A DNA stretch of 64,000 bases from Spirochaetia bacterium (lineage in GTDB: Bacteria; Spirochaetota; Spirochaetia; CADAEX01): contig OY759746.1 in assembly GCA_963662795.1 (NCBI GenBank), positions 3,168,001-3,232,000 of the forward strand. Direction: 5' to 3'. Positions 17,026 through 33,752 of this stretch are shown in pieces (the first letter of the stretch is position 1; each line of letters opens with the position of its first letter). A program made the translations under genes and the position numbers. The notes under the pieces were generated by a model that saw only the letters and a program-made list of their open reading frames with translations, searched no databases and was not told where the DNA came from.

Positions 17026-17093
17026 ATAATTCAGGGTATTCTGCCATTGGATTATTTACAAGCTTCTGTTTCTTTAAACTGATAAAAATATTT

Positions 17094-17370
17094 TCATGAG
17101 TAAAATTCTATTGCGTCCATCCGGGCCTTCAGTAATATCGGCAAGGCGGGATTCCGCGAATCCGGACTGCCTGAGTCCCGTAATATCTCCCGGACCCCGC
17201 AGACGGAGATCCTCTTCCGCAATTTTAAAGCCGTCATTTGTATCTTTTATTATTCTTAATCTTGCCTTCGCCTCTTCTGTCATCTCTCTGGTAAAAACAA
17301 GAAAAGTGTATGAGGGATAGCTGCTTATGCCTATTCTTCCCCGCAGCTGATGCAGTGCTGTAAGGCCGAA
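17094..17370 (-). pseudogene. recG: Displaced, frameshifted copy of the recG 3' end
   Basis: Aligns to 23113-23409; about 21 mismatches over the 244-bp ungapped block 17127-17370 by manual count, plus a 20-bp deletion near the stop; right-most 43 bp identical. Confidence 0.93.
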
Positions 17371-17748
17371 CCTCTATTCAGGCTTCTGGTGGCAAATGAA
17401 ATGATTATCCCCTATATCTGTGAGTACATGTCTGTTCGGAATTGCGGAATGATAATTTCATAAACAGGCTTTCTTGTTGTTGTTGGATACAGAATTTCAA
17501 CAAGAATAGAGTTTTTTATTTTTATGGCAGTAAAGGCTATTACAAGTATAATTGGCCTTTTTATCGGGCAGAATTTTATTGCCGAAAAACCTGGGCAGGT
17601 GAGGGAAGGTATTAAAAAAGGACAATATAGTTACTGTTATGCCTGGGGCTTGCTTTTTTTCAGTGTTGTTCATTTTTCTGAAACTGTTAAGTTAAACACA
17701 TTAATTGATGTATCGGCTTAAATTGCAAGTGCTTCCCTGTTTGATTCA

Positions 17749-18831
17749 TCAATTACAATTAATGGTCTTTTTACTAAACTCTATAAGATCTGAAAGTATT
17801 TTTATTTTATCGTAAATTGTGTAATACACGCTGACCGAAGAATTAACGAGAGATATTTTCTGAATGCAGTTATCATTTATTATTTCTGGTGATTGCGTTT
17901 TTATTCCCATAAAATTGAACCATTCACATAAATAGGTAATCATTGAGGTATCTTCTCCGGCTGCATCGCTTACAATAGCAATGGCATCGATACCTCCAAG
18001 AATTGCCATATAATAGCCGATGAATTTTATGATCTGATAAAAGTAAACTTCACGAATGGCAACTGCCTGTTCCGAAGTGTCTTTAAGGAATTCTCTGAAA
18101 TTTATGTTTCGGCCAAGGTATCCGCATATTCCGCTTTTGTTTTCAATAAGATCAACAATATCATGAATCTCCATTCCATATGCATGGAGTTCCATAAGCA
18201 TTGTCGGATCAATGTCCCCACAGCCGGTCATGGAAGGAAGCCCTTCGGCAGAGCTGAATCCAATGCTTGTTTCTATGGGTTGGCCTTCCTGTATGGCTGT
18301 GATATTTGTTTTATCCCCCAGATAAATACTGATAATTTTGGAAATTGAAGAATCATATTTTTGCTTTAGAATATCTGCAATCCATTTATGAGTTAACCCG
18401 AAACCGCCTCTTTTTGTAAAGGATGATTTTCTGAATTTTGACGGTATCGCGCAGATCAGGCTATCGTCAGGCAAAGCTGAAAAAAAAGCCTTATCGCTTA
18501 TTAATCGATGATGTGACTTTGGAAATAAAGCTGTAAAAAAATTGATTACACTGACAGTATAGAGGTCATTATTTGATAAACTGGCTCCGGCAGTATAAAG
18601 ATTATTGATTTGTATATTGCTGAGGTCTTCAATTGAATTCATCCCTTTAATAAGATCACTTTCCTGCAAATACCAGCATTCCTCAATATTTTCTTTCACG
18701 TTATAAGAAATGAATGTTTTAGACACTGTAAGCCAGTTTTCATATAACAGATCCGATTCCATAATAGATTGACAGTTTTTTATCAGAGTTAGTTTAATAC
18801 GGCTGGATTGGATATCAAGCAGTATATTCAC
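17749..18831 (-). CDS. Acetate-kinase-fold pseudoenzyme (Ack3)
   Basis: Recognisable ASKHA/AckA remnants (DKAFF, GGFGLTH, ETSIGFSSAEGL, GCGDIDP, NKSG) but no HR, GFHG His, TR Arg or TDEE; GTG start overlaps upstream stop. Confidence 0.75.
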   Translation of the reverse strand: MNILLDIQSSRIKLTLIKNCQSIMESDLLYENWLTVSKTFISYNVKENIEECWYLQESDLIKGMNSIEDLSNIQINNLYTAGASLSNNDLYTVSVINFFTALFPKSHHRLISDKAFFSALPDDSLICAIPSKFRKSSFTKRGGFGLTHKWIADILKQKYDSSISKIISIYLGDKTNITAIQEGQPIETSIGFSSAEGLPSMTGCGDIDPTMLMELHAYGMEIHDIVDLIENKSGICGYLGRNINFREFLKDTSEQAVAIREVYFYQIIKFIGYYMAILGGIDAIAIVSDAAGEDTSMITYLCEWFNFMGIKTQSPEIINDNCIQKISLVNSSVSVYYTIYDKIKILSDLIEFSKKTINCN

Positions 18832-20042
18832 AGCAATACTTCCTCCATTTTATATAATTTGACAACTTCTTCTGCTATTACAATCTCTTCATCTGTAGGA
18901 ATTATGAGAATTTTAACAGTTGAGTCCTTACTGTCAATTCTGGCTATCATATCAGGTTGTGCCTGTGTGTTTTTCTCAGCATCAAGGTTAATTCCGCACC
19001 ATTTCATATCTGCACAAACCTGTTCTCTTATTTCTGCGCATTGTATTCCTACGTCATCTGTAAAAATAAGGCAATCGATACCCTGTAGCGCCGATATAAA
19101 TGCTCCAATATACCGTTTTACGCTGTGTATATACTTTTTCAGAGCGAGTTGTGACTTTACATCTTCAGGGTTTTTACTCCTTTCAATAATGTCACGTATA
19201 TCGCTGGACTTTTCACTCAGGGATAAAAGGCCGCTTTTATTGTTTAATATATTCTGCACTTCATCTATGGTATATCCGAAATCTGAAATTAAATTCATTG
19301 GGATAAATGCATCAATGTCTCCGCATCGTGTACTCATGACAATTCCAGGTATTCCTGTATAACCCATGGAAATATCGATGGATTTTCCATTTTTTACTGC
19401 ATTAATTTCCGAACCTCCGGTACCTAAATGGCAGATTATCATTTTTAATTTATCATTGGTTGTTTTTAAAATATCAGGAACAGTTTCAGTTATATACTGA
19501 AATGACAATCCATGGAAACCGTATTTTCTGAATCTGAATTTTTCTAAAATATGTTGCGGCAGTATGTACTGAAATGCCCTTTGTGGAATGTCCTTATGAA
19601 AGGCGTTGTCTGTTGTTACAAACTGAGGTATTTTGGGATAGATTTTTGCACAGGCTTTTATGGTCATTAATGCTACGGCATGGTGAATCGGGATAATGGG
19701 CACCAGTTTTTGCATTAAAGTCAGTAGGTTTTTATCAATTTCAGCAGTTGTAAAATTATCAAGCCCATTGGCCCATCTGTGCCCAATTATATCAATAGTG
19801 ACCTTGAGACGATTAATTGTCTCAAGAATAATTGTCACAGCTATCTGATGATTTCCAAGAGGAACTGTTTCAGTAAGATTAATATTCTCATTTTTAAATT
19901 CAATGAATGATGGTTTATCACCTTTAACCCCGACCCGATGTGCTTTACCTTTTAAAATTTCCTTAAGATTATCATTTTCCAGTGTTTTGTATACTTTAAA
20001 GGTTAAAGAAGAACTTCCCCCATTAAACACAAGTAAATTCAT
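18828..20042 (-). CDS. Acetate kinase family protein with PPi-dependent (Entamoeba-type) signature (Ack2)
   Basis: FNGGSSSLTFKV, GHR, PIH, DNAFH, YGFHGLS, CHLGTGGS, VMSTRCGDID, FTDDVG, PTDEE. Confidence 0.85.
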   Translation of the reverse strand: MNLLVFNGGSSSLTFKVYKTLENDNLKEILKGKAHRVGVKGDKPSFIEFKNENINLTETVPLGNHQIAVTIILETINRLKVTIDIIGHRWANGLDNFTTAEIDKNLLTLMQKLVPIIPIHHAVALMTIKACAKIYPKIPQFVTTDNAFHKDIPQRAFQYILPQHILEKFRFRKYGFHGLSFQYITETVPDILKTTNDKLKMIICHLGTGGSEINAVKNGKSIDISMGYTGIPGIVMSTRCGDIDAFIPMNLISDFGYTIDEVQNILNNKSGLLSLSEKSSDIRDIIERSKNPEDVKSQLALKKYIHSVKRYIGAFISALQGIDCLIFTDDVGIQCAEIREQVCADMKWCGINLDAEKNTQAQPDMIARIDSKDSTVKILIIPTDEEIVIAEEVVKLYKMEEVLL

Positions 20043-20118
20043 GTTGTTTTTTTTATTGAATTAATATGTCGGGAGATTAAATTATTAAAAAATATTAATA
20101 GTCTCTGGGGAAATATTT

Positions 20119-20147
20119 GAGAGGATGGAAATATTTCCCATCCTCTC
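20119..20147 (-). other. Intercistronic stem-loop inside the island operon
   Basis: GAGAGGATGG-aaatatttc-CCATCCTCTC, perfect 10-bp stem, no U-tract on the transcribed (minus) strand. Confidence 0.55.
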
Positions 20148-20160
20148 TCATTGAGATGTT

Positions 20161-20958
20161 TCAAATTTCCATATCCTCAAAATAACTTCCCGGAACCCAA
20201 TAGCTTTTTTCCAGGTTTATAAAAGTTGAATAATTATGAAGCATTCCATAATTGGAAGAGCTGATTGAATACCAGCTTATATTTTCGTTTTTTGCAAGTT
20301 CAAGACGAATTTCATCCAGGGTGTCGATACTTGATTGATAATTTTCCTGTGTTTTTCCGATTAAATACAGCTGATCCTCTCTGGTGAGAAAAGAGTATAT
20401 AGGTGCAAGACTTTTACTGTCTGCAAGAGTGACTAATTTCTCCGGTGTAATATCTTTTTTCGGCTGAACTTCTATATGAATGATACTCATTTGTGGATAG
20501 TATCCCCTTTTGGAAGGCGAAAATGATTCAATTGGATAGGATGTAATAACAGGACAATCTATACTGAAAGTTGTTTTTACATCGCTGTCGATAGATGGAT
20601 ACTGACAAGTATAAGTGCAATTGTATTTTACAAGGCATGGTTCATTGGATTTAGGTGTTCTTTTTTCAACAAAATAAGGGAAGGCCATTTCAATTTTTAT
20701 GGTGTTGGCATTTAGCGCAGCAACATAATCTTTAATATTTGTTTTCATCGTTTCAATTCCGATTCTATCCCTGTGAAGGTGTGTAACCTGGATAAATTTA
20801 TCGATCCACTCTGCTTCGAATTCTTTCATTATCCGGGCATGTATTGAAATATTGGCTACTGTATGCTGTCCATTTTTATCCCTTTCTGAGGTTACTTTAA
20901 TGGGGAACGGTAATTCCCGAATACTAACATTTACAAGAAAAGCCCTTCCTTTTTTCAT
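20161..20958 (-). CDS. FolE2/MptA (GTP cyclohydrolase IB)-like T-fold protein with degenerate catalytic motifs
   Basis: Spacing and hydrophobic pattern match FolE2 (V.I..LP.PI, Q.TVA, FPYF.EK.TP, PIYS.L.REDQ, N...LH), but HMSR, CPCS, AHNQR, FVED and ESIH are all altered. Confidence 0.72.
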   Translation of the reverse strand: MKKGRAFLVNVSIRELPFPIKVTSERDKNGQHTVANISIHARIMKEFEAEWIDKFIQVTHLHRDRIGIETMKTNIKDYVAALNANTIKIEMAFPYFVEKRTPKSNEPCLVKYNCTYTCQYPSIDSDVKTTFSIDCPVITSYPIESFSPSKRGYYPQMSIIHIEVQPKKDITPEKLVTLADSKSLAPIYSFLTREDQLYLIGKTQENYQSSIDTLDEIRLELAKNENISWYSISSSNYGMLHNYSTFINLEKSYWVPGSYFEDMEI

Positions 20959-22232
20959 GATTTATCTCCATTACTTTGAAAACTATATGTAAAATTAGTG
21001 TGTACATCATATGTTTTATTTAGAATTCCTATAACATCTTCCAGTATAACCCTCTCTTCATCCGTAGGTACCACGAGTGTCTTGATTCTTGAAGAAGAAT
21101 CTGAAATATCAACAGGTTCTTTTATTTTAAATGCTTTTTGATTTTTAACTTTATCAACGATAAGGCCAATACTATCAAAGCCTTTTGTTATTTCTTTTCT
21201 AACATTTGTATCGTTTTCTCCTACACCGCCTGCGAAGATGATAGCATCAACATTATAATCCAGGACACCTAAATATGCTGCTAAAAATAACCTGATTTTG
21301 TAGCAATAAAGTTTTTGTACCAGAATGCAATTTTCATCACCTTCTGCAATGCCCTGTTCTATATCCCTCATGTCTGTTTTTCCGGTAAAACCGAAAATGC
21401 CGCTCTTCTTGTTAAGCTGTACATTGACAAGTTCTTCTACAGAAATTTTTTCTTTGCCGCAGATATAAGGAATAACTGCCGGATCAACAGTCCCGGATCT
21501 GGTTCCCATCATTACACCATCGAGAGGGGAAATCCCCATGCTGTGTTCAACCGCAACACCATTTTTAATAGCTGTAAGGCTTGCCCCATTTCCGATGTGC
21601 AATGTAATAAGATTCGTATCTTCAGGTCTTTTCCCAAGAAGTGCTGCAGATTTTTTTGACAGGTAAAGGTGTGAAGTCCCGTGGAATCCATATTTTCTTA
21701 CTTTATATTTTTTATACCATTCATATGGCACGCCATATAAATAAGCTTCCTCAGGGAGTGTTTGAAAAAAAGCAGTATCGAAAACGGCAATCTGTGGCAT
21801 ATCAGGTACAAGACCTGTTACTGCATCAATTCCTGCGAGATTTGCCGGATTATGAAGCGGGCCTAATTCAATCATTTCAACGATAGTGTCGTAGACTTCA
21901 CGATTAATAAGAGCGCTTTTCACGAATTTTTCTCCGCCGTGTAAAACTCTGTGTCCTACCGCTGAGATATCTGTCAGGGCTGATAAAACCCTGTAATCCG
22001 GATCAAGTTCACCTTTTAATGCTTCGAATATAAGTTGAATTGCTTCCTGGTGATTCTTACAGTTCCTTTTTACTTTTAAACTGGGTTTCCCACTTACATT
22101 ATGCCGAATAAATGAATCAGCTATTCCTACCCGCTCAACAATTCCTGATGTTACTGCAGAACAATTTTCTTTTTTAAAAAGGGCATATTTTGCCGATGAA
22201 GTACCGCAGTTTAGACATAGTATAAAGCTCAT
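20955..22232 (-). CDS. ackA: Acetate kinase, ATP-type (Ack1, island copy)
   Basis: LNCGTSSAKY, GHRVLHGG, PLHNP, FDTAF, YGFHGTSH, HIGNGAS, GTRSG, FAGGVGEN, PTDEE. Confidence 0.92.
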   Translation of the reverse strand: MSFILCLNCGTSSAKYALFKKENCSAVTSGIVERVGIADSFIRHNVSGKPSLKVKRNCKNHQEAIQLIFEALKGELDPDYRVLSALTDISAVGHRVLHGGEKFVKSALINREVYDTIVEMIELGPLHNPANLAGIDAVTGLVPDMPQIAVFDTAFFQTLPEEAYLYGVPYEWYKKYKVRKYGFHGTSHLYLSKKSAALLGKRPEDTNLITLHIGNGASLTAIKNGVAVEHSMGISPLDGVMMGTRSGTVDPAVIPYICGKEKISVEELVNVQLNKKSGIFGFTGKTDMRDIEQGIAEGDENCILVQKLYCYKIRLFLAAYLGVLDYNVDAIIFAGGVGENDTNVRKEITKGFDSIGLIVDKVKNQKAFKIKEPVDISDSSSRIKTLVVPTDEERVILEDVIGILNKTYDVHTNFTYSFQSNGDKS

Positions 22233-22241
22233 TTTTTCTCC

Positions 22242-22850
22242 TTATGATATTTTATGTAATTGAAGGCCCGTTAATAATAACGAGCAAGAATCAACTGTCG
22301 CTTTTATCGATTCGGAAGAAAAAGTATTGATGGAATAGAGCATGGAAATTAAAATCATAAGTAATAAATGGGCCATATTATTTACATCAACGCTTTTTCG
22401 TATTTCTCCTATTTTTATCCCTAACTTGAGAATTTTAGCAAACAATTTTTTAATTTCATTAAGCCTTAAAAATATTTTTTTTCTCTGGATAATAAATTCA
22501 GGATTATTCACCAGCAATACTTCCAGAAGAACAGTAATGATTTCCTTTTCTGAAATAATATCTGTTAGAAATCTATGTATTAAAAAATTAATTTTTTCAG
22601 CTGATGTCAGAAATATATTGTCACATGCAGTCATGTAATCGGTACCGATTACATCCAGAATGTAGTCAACAGCAAAATCAAGAAGTTCCTGCTTGTCTTT
22701 AAAGTAACTGTAAAATGCAGTTCTCCCCAAATCACTATGATTTGCAATTGTATTCATGTTTGCATTATCAAATCCCAGGTGTGCAAATTCAATTATTGCA
22801 GATTTCATTATTTTGGTTTTTATTACTTTCTTGTTGATAATCTTTGGCAT
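22242..22850 (-). CDS. TetR/AcrR family transcriptional regulator
   Basis: N-terminal HTH: F..LGF.NANMNTIA...LGRTAFYSYFKDKQELL. Confidence 0.9.
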   Translation of the reverse strand: MPKIINKKVIKTKIMKSAIIEFAHLGFDNANMNTIANHSDLGRTAFYSYFKDKQELLDFAVDYILDVIGTDYMTACDNIFLTSAEKINFLIHRFLTDIISEKEIITVLLEVLLVNNPEFIIQRKKIFLRLNEIKKLFAKILKLGIKIGEIRKSVDVNNMAHLLLMILISMLYSINTFSSESIKATVDSCSLLLTGLQLHKIS

Positions 22851-22917
22851 ATATTTTTGTTGACACCATTGTCAATAAAAATATATTTTATATTGACATC
22901 ATTGTCAATATAAAATA
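22849..22917 (-). promoter_or_regulatory. Tandem palindromic operators overlapping a sigma70 promoter of the tetR-ack operon
   Basis: Two TTGACA-N4-TGTCAA palindromes (cores 22860-22875 and 22893-22908); minus strand reads TTGACA(22908-22903)-N17-TATATT(22885-22880). Confidence 0.8.
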
Positions 22918-23112
22918 AAAAAACAATTGAAATAATCCAGACGAACTGATGCAGCCTGTGTGATGGGCTGACTCAAATAAAACTGTCTGTGGATTTTCTG
23001 GTGGGTGTTCGATGATGTTGATCCAGGTTTTATCATTTTACCTGTGATTTTTCATGATCCCCATTGAATTATTTACTGGTAGCTATTTCTTTCAACCGAT
23101 AAATTGTTATTA

Positions 23113-25080
23113 TCATGAGTAAATTTCAATCGCATCTTCTCTGGCTTTCTCAAGTATTTCCTGGTCTTCAATAATATCGGCAAGGCGGAATTCAGCAAAT
23201 CCTGACTGCCTGATTCCCGTAATATCTCCCGGACCCCGCAGACGGAGGTCCTCTTCCGCTATTTTAAAGCCGTCAGTTGTATCCTTTATTATCCTGAGCC
23301 TTGCCTTTGCATCTTCTGTCATCTCTCTGGTAAAAACAAGAAAGGAGTATGAAGGGTAGCTGCTTCTGCCTATTCTTCCCCGCAGCTGATGCAGTGCTGT
23401 AAGGCCGAATCTTTCTGCGTGCTCGATTACCATGCAGGTAGCCTTCGGCACATCAATTCCGACTTCTACAACACTTGTCGCGGCAAGTATTTTTATCTCT
23501 CCTTTTGAGAAACCGCTCATTACAGCTTCCTTTTCCTCTTCAGGAACACGGGAGTGGAGCAGGGCGCACTTATATTCAGGAAAAATATCATTTTCAAGAT
23601 GAGCGTACATAGATTCGGCATTTTTGAGATTAAGGTGTTCTGACTCCTCAACAAGCGGATATACAAAATATGCCTGGAAACCGTTTTCTATCTCCCTTCT
23701 GACCCAGTCATAAACTTTCTGAATATTCTCCTGAAGTACTGTATGTGTTTTTATCAGGCCCCGGCCTGCAGGCATTGATCTTATGGTTGATATTGAGATA
23801 TCGCCGAAAAATGTCATCTGCAGGGTTCTCGGGATAGGGGTCGCAGTCATCATCAGAAAGTCTGTCTCATCCCCTTTCCCCGTGAGCGCGCTTCTCTGGG
23901 CAACTCCGAATTTGTGCTGCTCGTCAACTATCGCAAACCCCAGGTTTTTAAACTTTACTGGTTCTGAAAGGAGGGAATGGGTTCCTATTATCAGGTCAAT
24001 TTCACCCGCTTCAAGCGCCTCACGGACAAGTTTTTTTTTGCTCTCTGGCAGTTTGCCTGAAATAAACGCTATTTTTATATCAGCGCCGGAAAAGAGGCGG
24101 GATGCTGATTCAAGATGCTGTTTCGCAAGCAGTTCTGTCGGGGCCATGAATGCTGTCTGATAGCCTGATTCAATGTAGGGAAGGGCGGATAAAAATCCGA
24201 CTATTGTTTTTCCGCAGCCGACATCTCCCTGAAGTATTCTGCTCATCGGGAGGGTTGAGTTCCCGTCGATGTAGATTTCTTCAACTGCCTTTAACTGGTC
24301 TTCTGTGAGTTTAAATGGGAGTGATTTTAAAAATTCCCCCTGCAGAGTCCGCCTGAGTGTTCTTTCCTTCCTCGATCTTGCTTCTTTCTCTTTTTTCAGG
24401 TCAAGCATTGATTTCTGGAACAGGAAAAATTCCTCATATTTGATTGTTTTTACCGCTTCATCAAGAGTCTCCCTGTTTTCCGGGAAGTGGATGTTTTTTA
24501 TCGCATCCGGCCGGCTGAGGAGGGCGTTTTTCTCAATCAGAGTATCAGGTATGATGTTTTCAAGGTATTTGCCCCGCACTTCAATAGCCTGATGTATTAT
24601 TTTTTTAAGGAAACCCATTGTAAGCTCACCCGTAAGGGGATAGACCGGTATGATTTTCTTGAAATTGACAGGGGATTCGCTGTAAGGTTCAAATTCAAAA
24701 TTGCTGCACTGGATTTCACCGAAACGGAGGGAAAAAGTACCGCTGATGAAGTATTTTTCCCCTTCCCTGAATGAGTTTCTCAGGAAATTCCTGCCGAAAC
24801 AGACCAGAGCGCCTTCAGCGCTGTCATCGCTTATTGAAACTTTAAGTGTTTTTTTGGGACCGTATCCAAACCAGGAAAAATCAGTTACATAACAGATTGT
24901 GTTCAGGTTTACACCTGTACCGGTGCTTCTGTATACCTCTGCCAGACTGTTTAATGTGTCTCTGTAATCGTATGCGCGCGGATAGTAACAGAGCAGGTCA
25001 TCAGGTGAAAAAATACCTGCTTCCTTAAGGTTTTTAAGTGAAGCAGGTCCGATTCCCTTTAATGATTTAAGCGATGACAT
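23113..25080 (-). CDS. recG: ATP-dependent DNA helicase RecG
   Basis: QGDVGCGKT, MAPTELLA, DEQHKFG, MTATPIPRT, QLRGRIGR, DLRLRGPG. Confidence 0.96.
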   Translation of the reverse strand: MSSLKSLKGIGPASLKNLKEAGIFSPDDLLCYYPRAYDYRDTLNSLAEVYRSTGTGVNLNTICYVTDFSWFGYGPKKTLKVSISDDSAEGALVCFGRNFLRNSFREGEKYFISGTFSLRFGEIQCSNFEFEPYSESPVNFKKIIPVYPLTGELTMGFLKKIIHQAIEVRGKYLENIIPDTLIEKNALLSRPDAIKNIHFPENRETLDEAVKTIKYEEFFLFQKSMLDLKKEKEARSRKERTLRRTLQGEFLKSLPFKLTEDQLKAVEEIYIDGNSTLPMSRILQGDVGCGKTIVGFLSALPYIESGYQTAFMAPTELLAKQHLESASRLFSGADIKIAFISGKLPESKKKLVREALEAGEIDLIIGTHSLLSEPVKFKNLGFAIVDEQHKFGVAQRSALTGKGDETDFLMMTATPIPRTLQMTFFGDISISTIRSMPAGRGLIKTHTVLQENIQKVYDWVRREIENGFQAYFVYPLVEESEHLNLKNAESMYAHLENDIFPEYKCALLHSRVPEEEKEAVMSGFSKGEIKILAATSVVEVGIDVPKATCMVIEHAERFGLTALHQLRGRIGRSSYPSYSFLVFTREMTEDAKARLRIIKDTTDGFKIAEEDLRLRGPGDITGIRQSGFAEFRLADIIEDQEILEKAREDAIEIYS

Positions 25081-32414: not shown

Positions 32415-33752
32415 TTAAAGCGGTTTTGCGATAATATCCTTAATTCCGGGGAATTTTTTAAGGTCCTTATTGATGTTTTTCATCCTGTCTTTGTTTACAT
32501 AATTTTTGTTCTGGAAGCTGTATGTGAAATTAGTGTGGACATCATAAGTGCCTTCAAGAAGCGCCTTTGTATCTTCTGTCATTACAAGCTCTTCGTCTGT
32601 CGGGATTACAAAAATCTTTACCTTTGAGTCTTTGGCAGATATTTCTGTTTCAGCGTTTCTGGTCATGGAACTCTTGTTTTTTTCCAGGTCAAGCTTTATG
32701 CCGAACTCTTCAAGACCCGAAGTTGCAAGCATCCTTGTAACAGGCCCTCTTTCACCAACGCCTGCTGTAAAAACAATTGCGTCAACATGTCCGAGCGCGA
32801 AAGCGTAGGAGCCGATATATTTTTTTATTCTGTATGCTTCCATTTTCTGCGCAAGAATAGCCCTTTCATTTCCCTCTTCGGCTGCGATTTCAATATCTCT
32901 CCTGTCTACCCATTTTTCAGTAATACCGAGAACTCCGCTTTTCTTGTTAAGGGCGTTTTCAGCCTGTTCCGGAGTCAATCCTGCTTTCCTCATCATGTAG
33001 AATGAAATTGCCGGATCATGGTCTCCGCTTCTTGTTCCCATTATAAGTCCTTCAAGCGGAGTGAGGCCCATGGATGTATCGTAGGATACGCCGTTTTTTA
33101 CAGCGTTTATGCTTGAGCCGTTTCCGATATGCGCGATAATCAGGTTGGTCGTGAAAGGATCCTTTCCGAGAAGGGCTGATGCTCTTTTTGCTGTGTAAAG
33201 GAAAGATGTTCCGTGAAAACCGTACCTGCGGACTCCGTACCTGGAATACCACTCATAAGGCAGCGCATAAAGGTATACTTCTTTAGACATAGTCTGATGC
33301 CATGCTGTATCCATTATGGCGCAATGCTTTACATTGGGAAGTTCTTCCTGGGCAGCCTTGATTCCTATAATGTTTGCAGGGTTATGAAGAGGCGCCAGCC
33401 CCTGAATGGAATCAAAAGTTTCAATTATTTTATCATCTATAATAATTGATTTGTTGAATTTTTCTCCGCCGTGCACAACCCTGTGTCCTACAGCCTTTAT
33501 ATCGTCTATTGACTTGATTGCACCGACAACCGGGTCAACAAGTGTTTTCATGATAAGATCAATTGCTTCCTTGTGTGTTGGGCACGAATGTTCGAGTTTG
33601 TATTCTTCTTTTCCTGATGTGTTATGCTTGATAAATGAGCCTTCAATTCCGATTCTTTCTACAATTCCGTTTGCGAGCACTTCCTGTTTGTCAAAGTCAT
33701 AGATTTGATATTTTAATGAAGAACTACCGCAATTTAATGTGAGTATTATCAC
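32415..33752 (-). CDS. ackA: Acetate kinase (housekeeping copy)
   Basis: All canonical motifs: LNCGSSSLKY, GHRVVHGG, APLHNP, YGFHGTS, HIGNGSS, GTRSGD, FTAGVGE, PTDEE; GTG start at 33752 with GGAGG SD. Confidence 0.96.
   Translation of the reverse strand: MIILTLNCGSSSLKYQIYDFDKQEVLANGIVERIGIEGSFIKHNTSGKEEYKLEHSCPTHKEAIDLIMKTLVDPVVGAIKSIDDIKAVGHRVVHGGEKFNKSIIIDDKIIETFDSIQGLAPLHNPANIIGIKAAQEELPNVKHCAIMDTAWHQTMSKEVYLYALPYEWYSRYGVRRYGFHGTSFLYTAKRASALLGKDPFTTNLIIAHIGNGSSINAVKNGVSYDTSMGLTPLEGLIMGTRSGDHDPAISFYMMRKAGLTPEQAENALNKKSGVLGITEKWVDRRDIEIAAEEGNERAILAQKMEAYRIKKYIGSYAFALGHVDAIVFTAGVGERGPVTRMLATSGLEEFGIKLDLEKNKSSMTRNAETEISAKDSKVKIFVIPTDEELVMTEDTKALLEGTYDVHTNFTYSFQNKNYVNKDRMKNINKDLKKFPGIKDIIAKPL

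Follow-up and report, generated by a model that had tools for sequence, protein, structure and literature searches.

The window analysed here is a 64,000-nucleotide stretch of contig OY759746.1 (assembly GCA_963662795.1, positions 3,168,001 to 3,232,000) from a Spirochaetia bacterium, and it carries a gene row encoding a TetR-family regulator, three acetate kinase paralogues (Ack1, Ack2 and Ack3) and a T-fold protein related to the GTP cyclohydrolase FolE2. Comparison of this row across genomes and metagenomes demonstrated that the conserved core is Ack2-Ack3-T-fold, with Ack1 and TetR as accessories found in few loci only. Judged from its motifs and profile matches, Ack2 belongs to the pyrophosphate (PPi) acetate kinase type of Entamoeba, so that the cassette may give anaerobic bacteria a route from acetyl phosphate to PPi. 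Taken together, Ack2 would be a PPi-forming kinase, Ack3 its partner, the T-fold protein an accessory or regulator and TetR a repressor, a joint reading to which we give about an even chance. The kinase type itself is already known from Entamoeba and has been flagged in bacteria as a candidate, whereas the cassette of three proteins, the family of pseudo-kinases and the sister family of FolE2 seem to be undescribed. The features of the row are given below, where the bit scores are to be compared with curated cut-offs of 22 bits for PF00871, 293.4 bits for TIGR00016 (ackA) and 215 bits for NF010200 (the FolE2 equivalog).

22242-22850, minus strand: TetR-family regulator, 202 aa; PF00440 (TetR_N) 34.9 bits
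20955-22232, minus strand: Ack1, ATP-type acetate kinase, 425 aa; PF00871 444 bits, TIGR00016 457 bits
20161-20958, minus strand: T-fold protein of a FolE2 sister family without the FolE2 metal ligands, 265 aa; PF02649 87 bits
20119-20147, minus strand: perfect hairpin with a 13-bp stem, inside the 118 nt that separate the T-fold gene from Ack2
18828-20042, minus strand: Ack2, Entamoeba-type acetate kinase (candidate for Pi/PPi use, Pi being orthophosphate), 404 aa; PF00871 331 bits, TIGR00016 339 bits
17749-18831, minus strand: Ack3, conserved acetate kinase pseudoenzyme with a GTG start, 360 aa; PF00871 120 bits

The open reading frame (ORF) listing of the window and a hairpin scan agree with a preliminary description of this DNA on the gene row, its placement on the minus strand from tetR to Ack3, the stem-loop, and the two 4-nt overlaps, one between the Ack1 stop and the T-fold start (20955-20958) and the other between the Ack2 stop and the GTG start of Ack3 (18828-18831). 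The hairpin lies in a 136-nt stretch with a folding z of -3.0 and is absent from the terminator calls of a separate scan. The same description had placed a normal ackA in the window and no pta in the operon, and both points hold: five PF00871 genes are present in the host genome, namely Ack1 to Ack3, the normal ackA at ~32577-33746 in the window and a further one elsewhere at C1:2278838, and the sole host pta is found at C1:3025884, outside the operon.

The six residues to which catalytic roles are assigned in the M. thermophila enzyme literature are Asn7, Arg91, Asp148, His180, Arg241 and Glu384. With numbering counted along the 1G99 alignment, all of them are kept in Ack2 and in the Ack2 family, which was represented by 32 sequences in a motif table that also held 35 Ack3 and 12 Ack1-type sequences. 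Ack2 carries the motifs HLGTGGS, MSTRCGDID and FTDDVGIQ, in agreement with the earlier claim that its catalytic residues are kept and its nucleotide-site motifs altered. The comparison of Ack2 with the Entamoeba acetate kinase (EhACK), also implied earlier, is sustained by several features: MSTRCGDID and the PHOSPHATE2 loop HLGTGGS, which is one residue longer and whose second Gly corresponds to Gly203 of EhACK (EC 2.7.2.12, 4H0O), the Asp after Thr in the ADENOSINE motif, and Thr for Lys14, Leu for Thr182 and Asp for Asn383. In fact, the stretch with the extra Gly (L206-G207-T208-G209-G210) and the FTDD of the ADENOSINE motif (FTDQ in EhACK) are both invariant in 21/21 aligned Ack2 members. 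On the other hand, bacterial members have Asp-Ile/Val in place of Gln323-Met324, and the Gln-Met pair occluding the adenosine pocket of EhACK is accordingly lacking, with Asp-Val in the window Ack2 and Asp-Ile in the family.

When the window Ack2 was compared with solved structures, the result was a near tie between the Thermotoga acetate kinase (274.9 bits) and 4H0O (273.0 bits), which is the Entamoeba histolytica enzyme according to a figure legend of PMC5517563. The Ack2 family profile, however, placed 4H0O on top, with 465.6 bits against 410.4 for the next structure, such profile scores against Protein Data Bank (PDB) entries standing in for a phylogeny that includes the Entamoeba enzyme. 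Ack1 shows the opposite behaviour, since 4H0O ranks second from last for it, with 163 bits against 408 for the best structure. In the tree, Ack2 forms a single supported clade (SH-aLRT, an approximate likelihood ratio test, 99) and Ack3 another one on a long branch, while the Ack2 alignment has a mean column identity of 65%. Pi/PPi use by Ack2 is plausible on sequence grounds. As a separate observation, Ack2 is split into two ORFs in two metagenome-assembled genomes (MAGs; L035:5779-6974 and L092:5784-7010, where L numbers denote fetched loci), which reflects a frameshift or an assembly error.

This type of sequence has been noticed before. Section 12 of Dang and Ingram-Smith 2017 (PMC5517563) describes the extended PHOSPHATE2 loop and Asp-Asp in the ADENOSINE motif in four Anaerolineaceae and in some digester metagenome sequences, and leaves open whether these bacterial sequences use PPi, ATP or neither. 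Ack2 resembles these Anaerolineaceae candidates in both diagnostic features and in the same Asp at the Gln323 position; that section, unlike the present data, contains no mention of gene neighbours, of a pseudo-kinase or of a T-fold partner. A PPi-forming acetate kinase is known so far only from Entamoeba according to the parts of the same paper considered here, and a gene association of the kinase with an inactive paralogue and a T-fold partner, as seen for bacterial Ack2, is not known for Entamoeba, eukaryote genomes having stood outside the searches. Literature searches, which did not extend to the supplementary alignments of PMC5517563, returned no paper in which acetate kinase is connected to FolE2 or to a T-fold protein. 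The statement of the preliminary description that this gene set is undescribed thus holds for the cassette in these searches, but not for the Ack2 type, which was flagged in 2017.

The conservation of the cassette was established by three surveys. Species-representative genomes were scanned with the T-fold protein, which yielded 200 confirmed matches, and the 80 best loci were examined; an Ack2 scan of metagenome contigs gave at least 565 relatives among at least 599 matched stretches, again with the best 80 loci examined. Additionally, a wide protein search with the T-fold protein found 198 relatives at E <= 1e-5, and the 120 listed among them all had at least 48% identity, a length of ~265 aa and names from many phyla. 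Around the T-fold gene, an Ack2-type and an Ack3-type gene stood directly beside it in 39/80 loci, and Ack3 was present before the contig end in 1/80; an ATP-type Ack lay directly upstream in 9/80, with pta in front in 6 of these, and no Ack was adjacent in 19/80 despite at least 2.5 kb on each side, the flanks being too short in the remaining 12/80 (the context class of L055 was reassigned by hand). The gene order in the 39 loci was nearly always Ack2-Ack3-T-fold, with genes that abut or overlap. Downstream sequence of at least 2100 nt was available for 51 Ack2 loci, of which 44 had Ack3 and the T-fold gene, five Ack3 only and two neither, so that Ack3 was present in 49/51; the 29 shorter loci showed the start of Ack3 in 10, a T-fold gene upstream in 2 and nothing further in 17. 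No other gene was conserved around the core in the neighbour survey of the T-fold loci.

The row of the window also recurs as a whole. In L013, from a spirochaete MAG, TetR, Ack1, T-fold, Ack2 and Ack3 are found with 64, 74, 71, 55 and 36% identity, respectively, whereas other loci have other rows, such as TetR-Ack1-T-fold in L014 and T-fold-Ack2-Ack3-Ack1 in L093. Because the five-gene row recurs in L013 and the core recurs across many phyla, this gene set is no chance arrangement. The co-occurrence of four genes proposed earlier was accordingly supported in part, since Ack2, Ack3 and the T-fold gene recur together (39/80 and 44/51 loci) and Ack1, like TetR, does so in few loci. The T-fold family was absent from 60 same-class relatives, where five PF02649-like matches were only 24-29% identical and had no Ack within 1.5 kb, as expected for canonical FolE2. 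The actinomycete MAG locus L042:3519-8792, with the order pta-ackA (ATP-type)-Ack2-Ack3-T-fold, was the most complete acetyl phosphate module seen.

Ack1 has ATP-type motifs, as described previously, and all six catalytic residues, and it groups with housekeeping AckA in the tree. Ack3, for which a loss of catalytic residues had also been correctly noted, passes PF00871 over profile positions 125-379 only and fails TIGR00016 (110.7 bits), and the window protein is without N7, R91, H180, R241 and E384. This loss extends to the whole Ack3 family (35 sequences), in which Asn7, Ser10, Ser12, Arg91, His180, Arg241 and Glu384 are gone and only Asp148 is kept among the catalytic residues, while the motifs CDTAFF, RRYGGxGLxHxWAW and GCGDIDPT are maintained. 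Its AlphaFold2 (AF2) model has the full acetate kinase fold, with a predicted local distance difference test (pLDDT) value of 84 and a template modelling (TM) score of ~0.8 to many acetate kinase structures at 19-22% identity, and the mean column identity of the Ack3 alignment is 49%. The full predicted fold, the family-wide loss of residues and the motifs kept thus show Ack3 to be a conserved pseudoenzyme instead of a duplicate in decay. Because acetate kinases form dimers, Ack3 may be a full-length, non-catalytic (dimer) partner of Ack2. A complex prediction with Ack2 1-397, Ack3 1-345 and T-fold 5-260, made with alignments, gave a score of 0.00 in two runs without controls, which counts neither for nor against binding among these proteins.

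The third component of the core was addressed by comparison with GTP cyclohydrolase IB (3D2O, 8G6C and 2R5R), with which it shares a PF02649 match over the cut-off of that family and the same predicted bimodular fold at a TM score of ~0.8. Its AF2 model (pLDDT 83.9) retrieved 2R5R, 8G8V and 3D2O with Foldseek at E values of 1e-17 to 1e-18, TM scores of 0.77-0.81 and 21-24% identity, and the bimodular T-fold of FolE2 is present in that model. However, the FolE2 equivalog NF010200 gave only 72.5 bits, far below its cut-off, and the active site is different. The metal ligands of FolE2 are Cys154, His166 and Glu208 in B. pseudomallei according to the portion of PMC11573665 used here, and the same spacing picks C147, H159 and E201 in the 3D2O alignment. 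At these positions, the T-fold family has an invariant Tyr141, Phe or Tyr (Tyr154 in the window) and an invariant Gln196, and the KGTHMSRF stretch of FolE2 is replaced by FEAxWIDKF. Invariant replacement motifs are found at the FolE2 active-site motifs, namely Y141-P142, Q156, D195-Q196 and H241-x-Y243, and an alignment of 25 sequences from many phyla has 51 invariant columns and a mean column identity of 63%, comparable to that of Ack2 and higher than that of Ack3. The preliminary description had called this protein degenerate, a term that does not suit a family as conserved as Ack2 itself.

The members of the T-fold family make up a single clade, which a long branch sets apart from canonical FolE2 and in which loci of different genomic context are mixed. 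A true GTP cyclohydrolase I was encoded as well in 6/6 genomes examined, namely FolE in the host and in genome G065 and canonical FolE2 in G061-G064, and PF02649 scores in the same genomes were 322-338 bits for canonical FolE2 and 82-95 bits for the T-fold family. This coexistence indicates a paralogous family with a new function instead of a degenerate FolE2. A role as the only GTP cyclohydrolase I of the cell was rejected by the presence of FolE or canonical FolE2 in those six genomes, and a role as a substitute for Pta was likewise rejected, strong Pta matches being present in 20/20 cassette genomes. The cassette also defines two unstudied families, the pseudo-acetate-kinase and the sister family of FolE2. 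In public annotations and in ESM Atlas clusters, the latter bears the name 'GTP cyclohydrolase FolE2/I' despite the absent ligands. This naming is likely a systematic misannotation, and it will mislead reconstructions of folate and queuosine pathways.

The neighbours of the T-fold gene point to the acetyl-CoA/acetyl phosphate/PPi node. Rows of pta-ackA-T-fold were found in 6 loci, and 7/9 loci with an adjacent ATP-type Ack were planctomycete MAGs according to their record titles. Both the neighbours and the conservation of the T-fold protein bear on an alternative in which the acceptor or donor of Ack2 would be neither ADP/ATP nor Pi/PPi, the T-fold protein would bind, make or consume that other compound, and the cassette would be a module for an uncharacterised phosphorylated metabolite. 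The T-fold protein is conserved like an enzyme, with every FolE2 active-site motif swapped for another invariant motif, and the Asp-Ile/Val of bacterial Ack2 members, against Gln-Met in Entamoeba, raises the same doubt that section 12 of PMC5517563 expresses. Nevertheless, the T-fold gene occurs in genomes without Ack2, its neighbours pta, ackA, acetylating aldehyde dehydrogenase and membrane proton-pumping pyrophosphatase (H+-PPase) belong to plain acetyl-CoA/acetyl phosphate/PPi metabolism, and no conserved biosynthetic genes surround the cassette, so that this alternative is considered unlikely.

Several T-fold loci have distinctive surroundings. In four planctomycete loci (L020, L079, L080 and L086), pta-ackA-T-fold is followed by a gene for a 670-aa DUF4954/DUF6819 protein, with glucosamine-6-phosphate deaminase next in 3/4. 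In Geobacteraceae-like MAGs (L049, L071, L081 and L082, and also L050 and L091), an acetylating acetaldehyde dehydrogenase gene precedes the T-fold gene, after which Ech/complex-I-like hydrogenase genes are found. In a TA06 MAG (L062:1748-4687), the T-fold gene is followed after 103 nt by a same-strand H+-PPase gene (879 bits), and an H+-PPase-like gene lies ~4.5 kb from the cassette in L036.

In the joint reading, acetyl phosphate would come from Pta, or from Ack1 and ATP, and Ack2 would be the catalytic subunit that converts acetyl phosphate and orthophosphate to acetate and pyrophosphate, like EhACK. Ack3 would accompany it as a dead paralogue, and the T-fold protein, a remodelled relative of GTP cyclohydrolase IB, would act as an accessory enzyme or regulator at the acetyl-CoA/acetyl phosphate/PPi node. 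Gene content, conservation, motif states, the insertion of the island and the PPi enzymes of the host are shown by the present data, whereas we infer that Ack2 uses Pi/PPi, that it pairs with Ack3, that TetR represses the row and whatever role is assigned to the T-fold protein. This scheme is related to the Pta-AckA pathway, of which Ack1 and both housekeeping AckA genes are typical representatives, in which Pta supplies acetyl phosphate and in whose pta-ackA rows the T-fold gene is found. The cassette differs from it by adding a second, non-ATP-type kinase and two proteins outside the textbook pathway.

The PPi formed would feed the PPi-dependent phosphofructokinase (PPi-PFK), the pyruvate phosphate dikinase (PPDK) and the H+-PPase of the host. 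In fact, the host genome encodes Pta, H+-PPase (885 bits), PPDK (1346 bits) and PPi-PFK (814 bits), the last three over their curated cut-offs, and has no match to PF00719, the family-I soluble pyrophosphatase to which the check was confined. A second PPDK-like host gene (G000:C1:3507995-3510520) reaches 654 bits, under the TIGR01828 cut-off. Among 20 cassette genomes, H+-PPase was found in 19/20 and PF00719 in 1/20, and pta lay inside 18/160 fetched loci. Carriers of the cassette are thus PPi-conserving, but they are not distinguished by this trait, since H+-PPase was equally common in cassette-free same-class relatives (53/60, with PF00719 in 8/60); the H+-PPase/PF00719 pattern therefore fits the PPi reading without discriminating in its favour. 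The check on PPi economy suggested in the preliminary description gave a correspondingly divided answer, in which the host has the expected PPi-PFK, PPDK and H+-PPase and no family-I pyrophosphatase, and the H+-PPase/PF00719 pattern of carriers is shared by relatives without the cassette.

The source of acetyl phosphate separates the joint reading from a closed ATP/PPi cycle, in which Ack1 would make acetyl phosphate and Ack2 would pass the phosphoryl group to Pi, giving net ATP + Pi = ADP + PPi with catalytic acetate, and Ack3 and the T-fold protein would be structural or regulatory subunits. The overlap of the Ack1 stop with the T-fold start is consistent with this cycle, as is the presence of an ATP-type Ack in one row with the core in the window, L013, L042 and L093, or 1.4-2.5 kb from the cassette in L095 and L143. 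Moreover, the PPi source of PPi-dependent glycolysis is an acknowledged open problem, stated as elusive for C. thermocellum in the passages of PMC8863071 used here, and ATP-to-PPi cycles have been sought in that species. Those passages dismiss a PPi acetate kinase there only because its single Ack is ATP-dependent. On the other hand, no Ack1 is adjacent in 34/39 genome loci with Ack2 and Ack3, and two housekeeping AckA genes are already available in the host. Since Pta is present in 20/20 cassette genomes, acetyl phosphate need not derive from ATP, and since most cassettes have no Ack1 in the row, the cycle suits the window as a special case and is not general. For these reasons, it is regarded as rather improbable as an account of the cassette.

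Several results weigh against the PPi-forming role proposed here. The Asp at the Gln323 position may mean, according to section 12 of PMC5517563, that neither ATP nor PPi is used, and the literature searches found no report of a tested bacterial PPi acetate kinase. The cassette is also not an obligate unit, since 5/51 Ack2 loci had Ack3 without the T-fold gene and 2/51 had neither, and the T-fold gene stood without an adjacent Ack in 19 of its 80 loci. Of five genomes examined in which the T-fold gene is solo or linked to ackA, four had a best match to the Ack2 profile of only 366-388 bits, which is ATP-type-like, and the fifth had none; because the T-fold protein is present solo and in genomes without Ack2, its function cannot depend on Ack2 or Ack3. 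The window Ack2 itself is fast-evolving, with a branch of 0.87 and an altered pocket (GHRWANG, PIHHA and MGYTGIPG), and the frequency of H+-PPase and PF00719 in cassette-free relatives belongs to the same side of the balance.

Beyond the joint reading, a wider and more tentative proposal can be made, namely that Ack2-Ack3-T-fold would be a dedicated machine of many phyla that makes PPi from acetyl phosphate and Pi and supplies the long-sought PPi for PPi-dependent glycolysis in anaerobes, that it would represent the bacterial stock of the PPi acetate kinase of Archamoebae, and that the T-fold protein would have arisen from GTP cyclohydrolase IB as a functional class of its own, new to science, either an enzyme or a sensor at the acetyl phosphate/PPi node. 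This is possible, although we would not expect it to hold in full. Acetate kinase is listed among the ancestral bacterial acquisitions of Archamoebae in the portion of PMC8136499 used here. A conserved bacterial cassette around an Entamoeba-type kinase makes the question of the PPi source directly testable with three small proteins.

The altered pocket has a further consequence, since the acyl substrate of the window Ack2 may differ because of it. As an observation on the family, an Ack2 sub-lineage formed by the window, L013, L018 and L045 has the acyl-pocket motifs GHRW(A/G/V), P(I/L/V)HH and MGYT(G/A). The changes common to these four proteins (A/G/V at V93, following a Trp, H at N124 and G/A at P232) could indicate a TetR-controlled catabolic or overflow operon for a non-acetate short-chain acid, such as propionate or butyrate, with a shifted acyl specificity of the spirochaete Ack2, and control by TetR suggests induction by a small molecule. 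However, the acetate-pocket residues are kept in the Ack2 family consensus, the pocket of Ack1 is of the standard acetate/propionate type and the ORF listing has no transporter or CoA-transferase genes in the island that carries the row (see below), which makes such an operon improbable.

The regulator has the N-terminal helix-turn-helix domain of its family and a palindromic site in its own putative promoter, and it would repress the gene row through the candidate operators of the following feature.

22854-22914, minus strand: TetR-operator-like palindromes and a promoter-like site, upstream of tetR

The two palindromes, TTGACA-N4-TGTCAA, lie at 22860-22875 and 22893-22908, and both overlap the promoter-like sequence TTGACA-17-TATATT at 22908-22880. 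They are the only 2 matches to this pattern in the window, against a chance expectation of 0.23, and one copy is kept in L013, ~40 nt upstream of the orthologous tetR. Besides the L013 homologue, which has 64% identity, a partial match of 47% was found in L014.

The region is a horizontally acquired island of 6 kb, inserted at the 3' end of recG between two direct repeats:

17044-17384, strand not given: left border of the island, a remnant duplicate of the 3' end of recG with the following spacer (direct repeat)
23061-23423, strand not given: right island border, the 3' end of intact recG and the following spacer (direct repeat)

The repeats share 89% identity over 265 nt, and additional blocks match at 79% and 74%; intact recG is found at 23113-25080, and a 69-aa ORF remnant of the recG tail at 17074-17283. 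The GC content is 0.36 in the island and ~0.41 in its surroundings. An empty site is present in the same-genus genome G001, where recG (95% identical protein) is followed directly by a 212-aa ORF, the same ORF that sits left of the island in the window, and the island is found at the corresponding position of an 80-kb contig from run X4, which has a second organism label. As expected of an integrative genomic island, direct repeats thus flank it at the 3' end of a gene and a relative has the empty site, whereas no integrase-sized ORF occurs between the repeats in the ORF listing, family scans having covered the five genes only. The other ORFs between the repeats are the 69-aa recG tail, a 65-aa ORF and opposite-strand ORFs of 61-184 aa inside or overlapping the five genes.

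Location on an acquired island, together with the loss of catalytic residues in Ack3 and of the FolE2 metal ligands in the T-fold protein, might be taken to mean that these two proteins are decaying, functionless duplicates, or that the set is an anti-phage defence island. This is hardly credible, given that both are intact ORFs in a fixed order across many phyla, that the T-fold alignment has its 51 invariant columns, and that PADLOC gave no match for four of the proteins and only E values of 0.0011 and 0.0057 for the T-fold protein. The defence reading was dropped for want of a real PADLOC match.

Two minor observations concern the island borders. On the X4 contig, 84 nt stand in place of window positions 17178-17664 and the 65-aa plus-strand ORF at 17524-17721 is absent, so this ORF is unlikely to be part of the system. 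Compared with G001, the left remnant of the recG tail is 88.6% identical over 255 nt, and the other copy, with which the functional recG ends, reaches 84.9% identity over 364 nt; therefore, the island may have supplied its own replacement for the recG 3' end.

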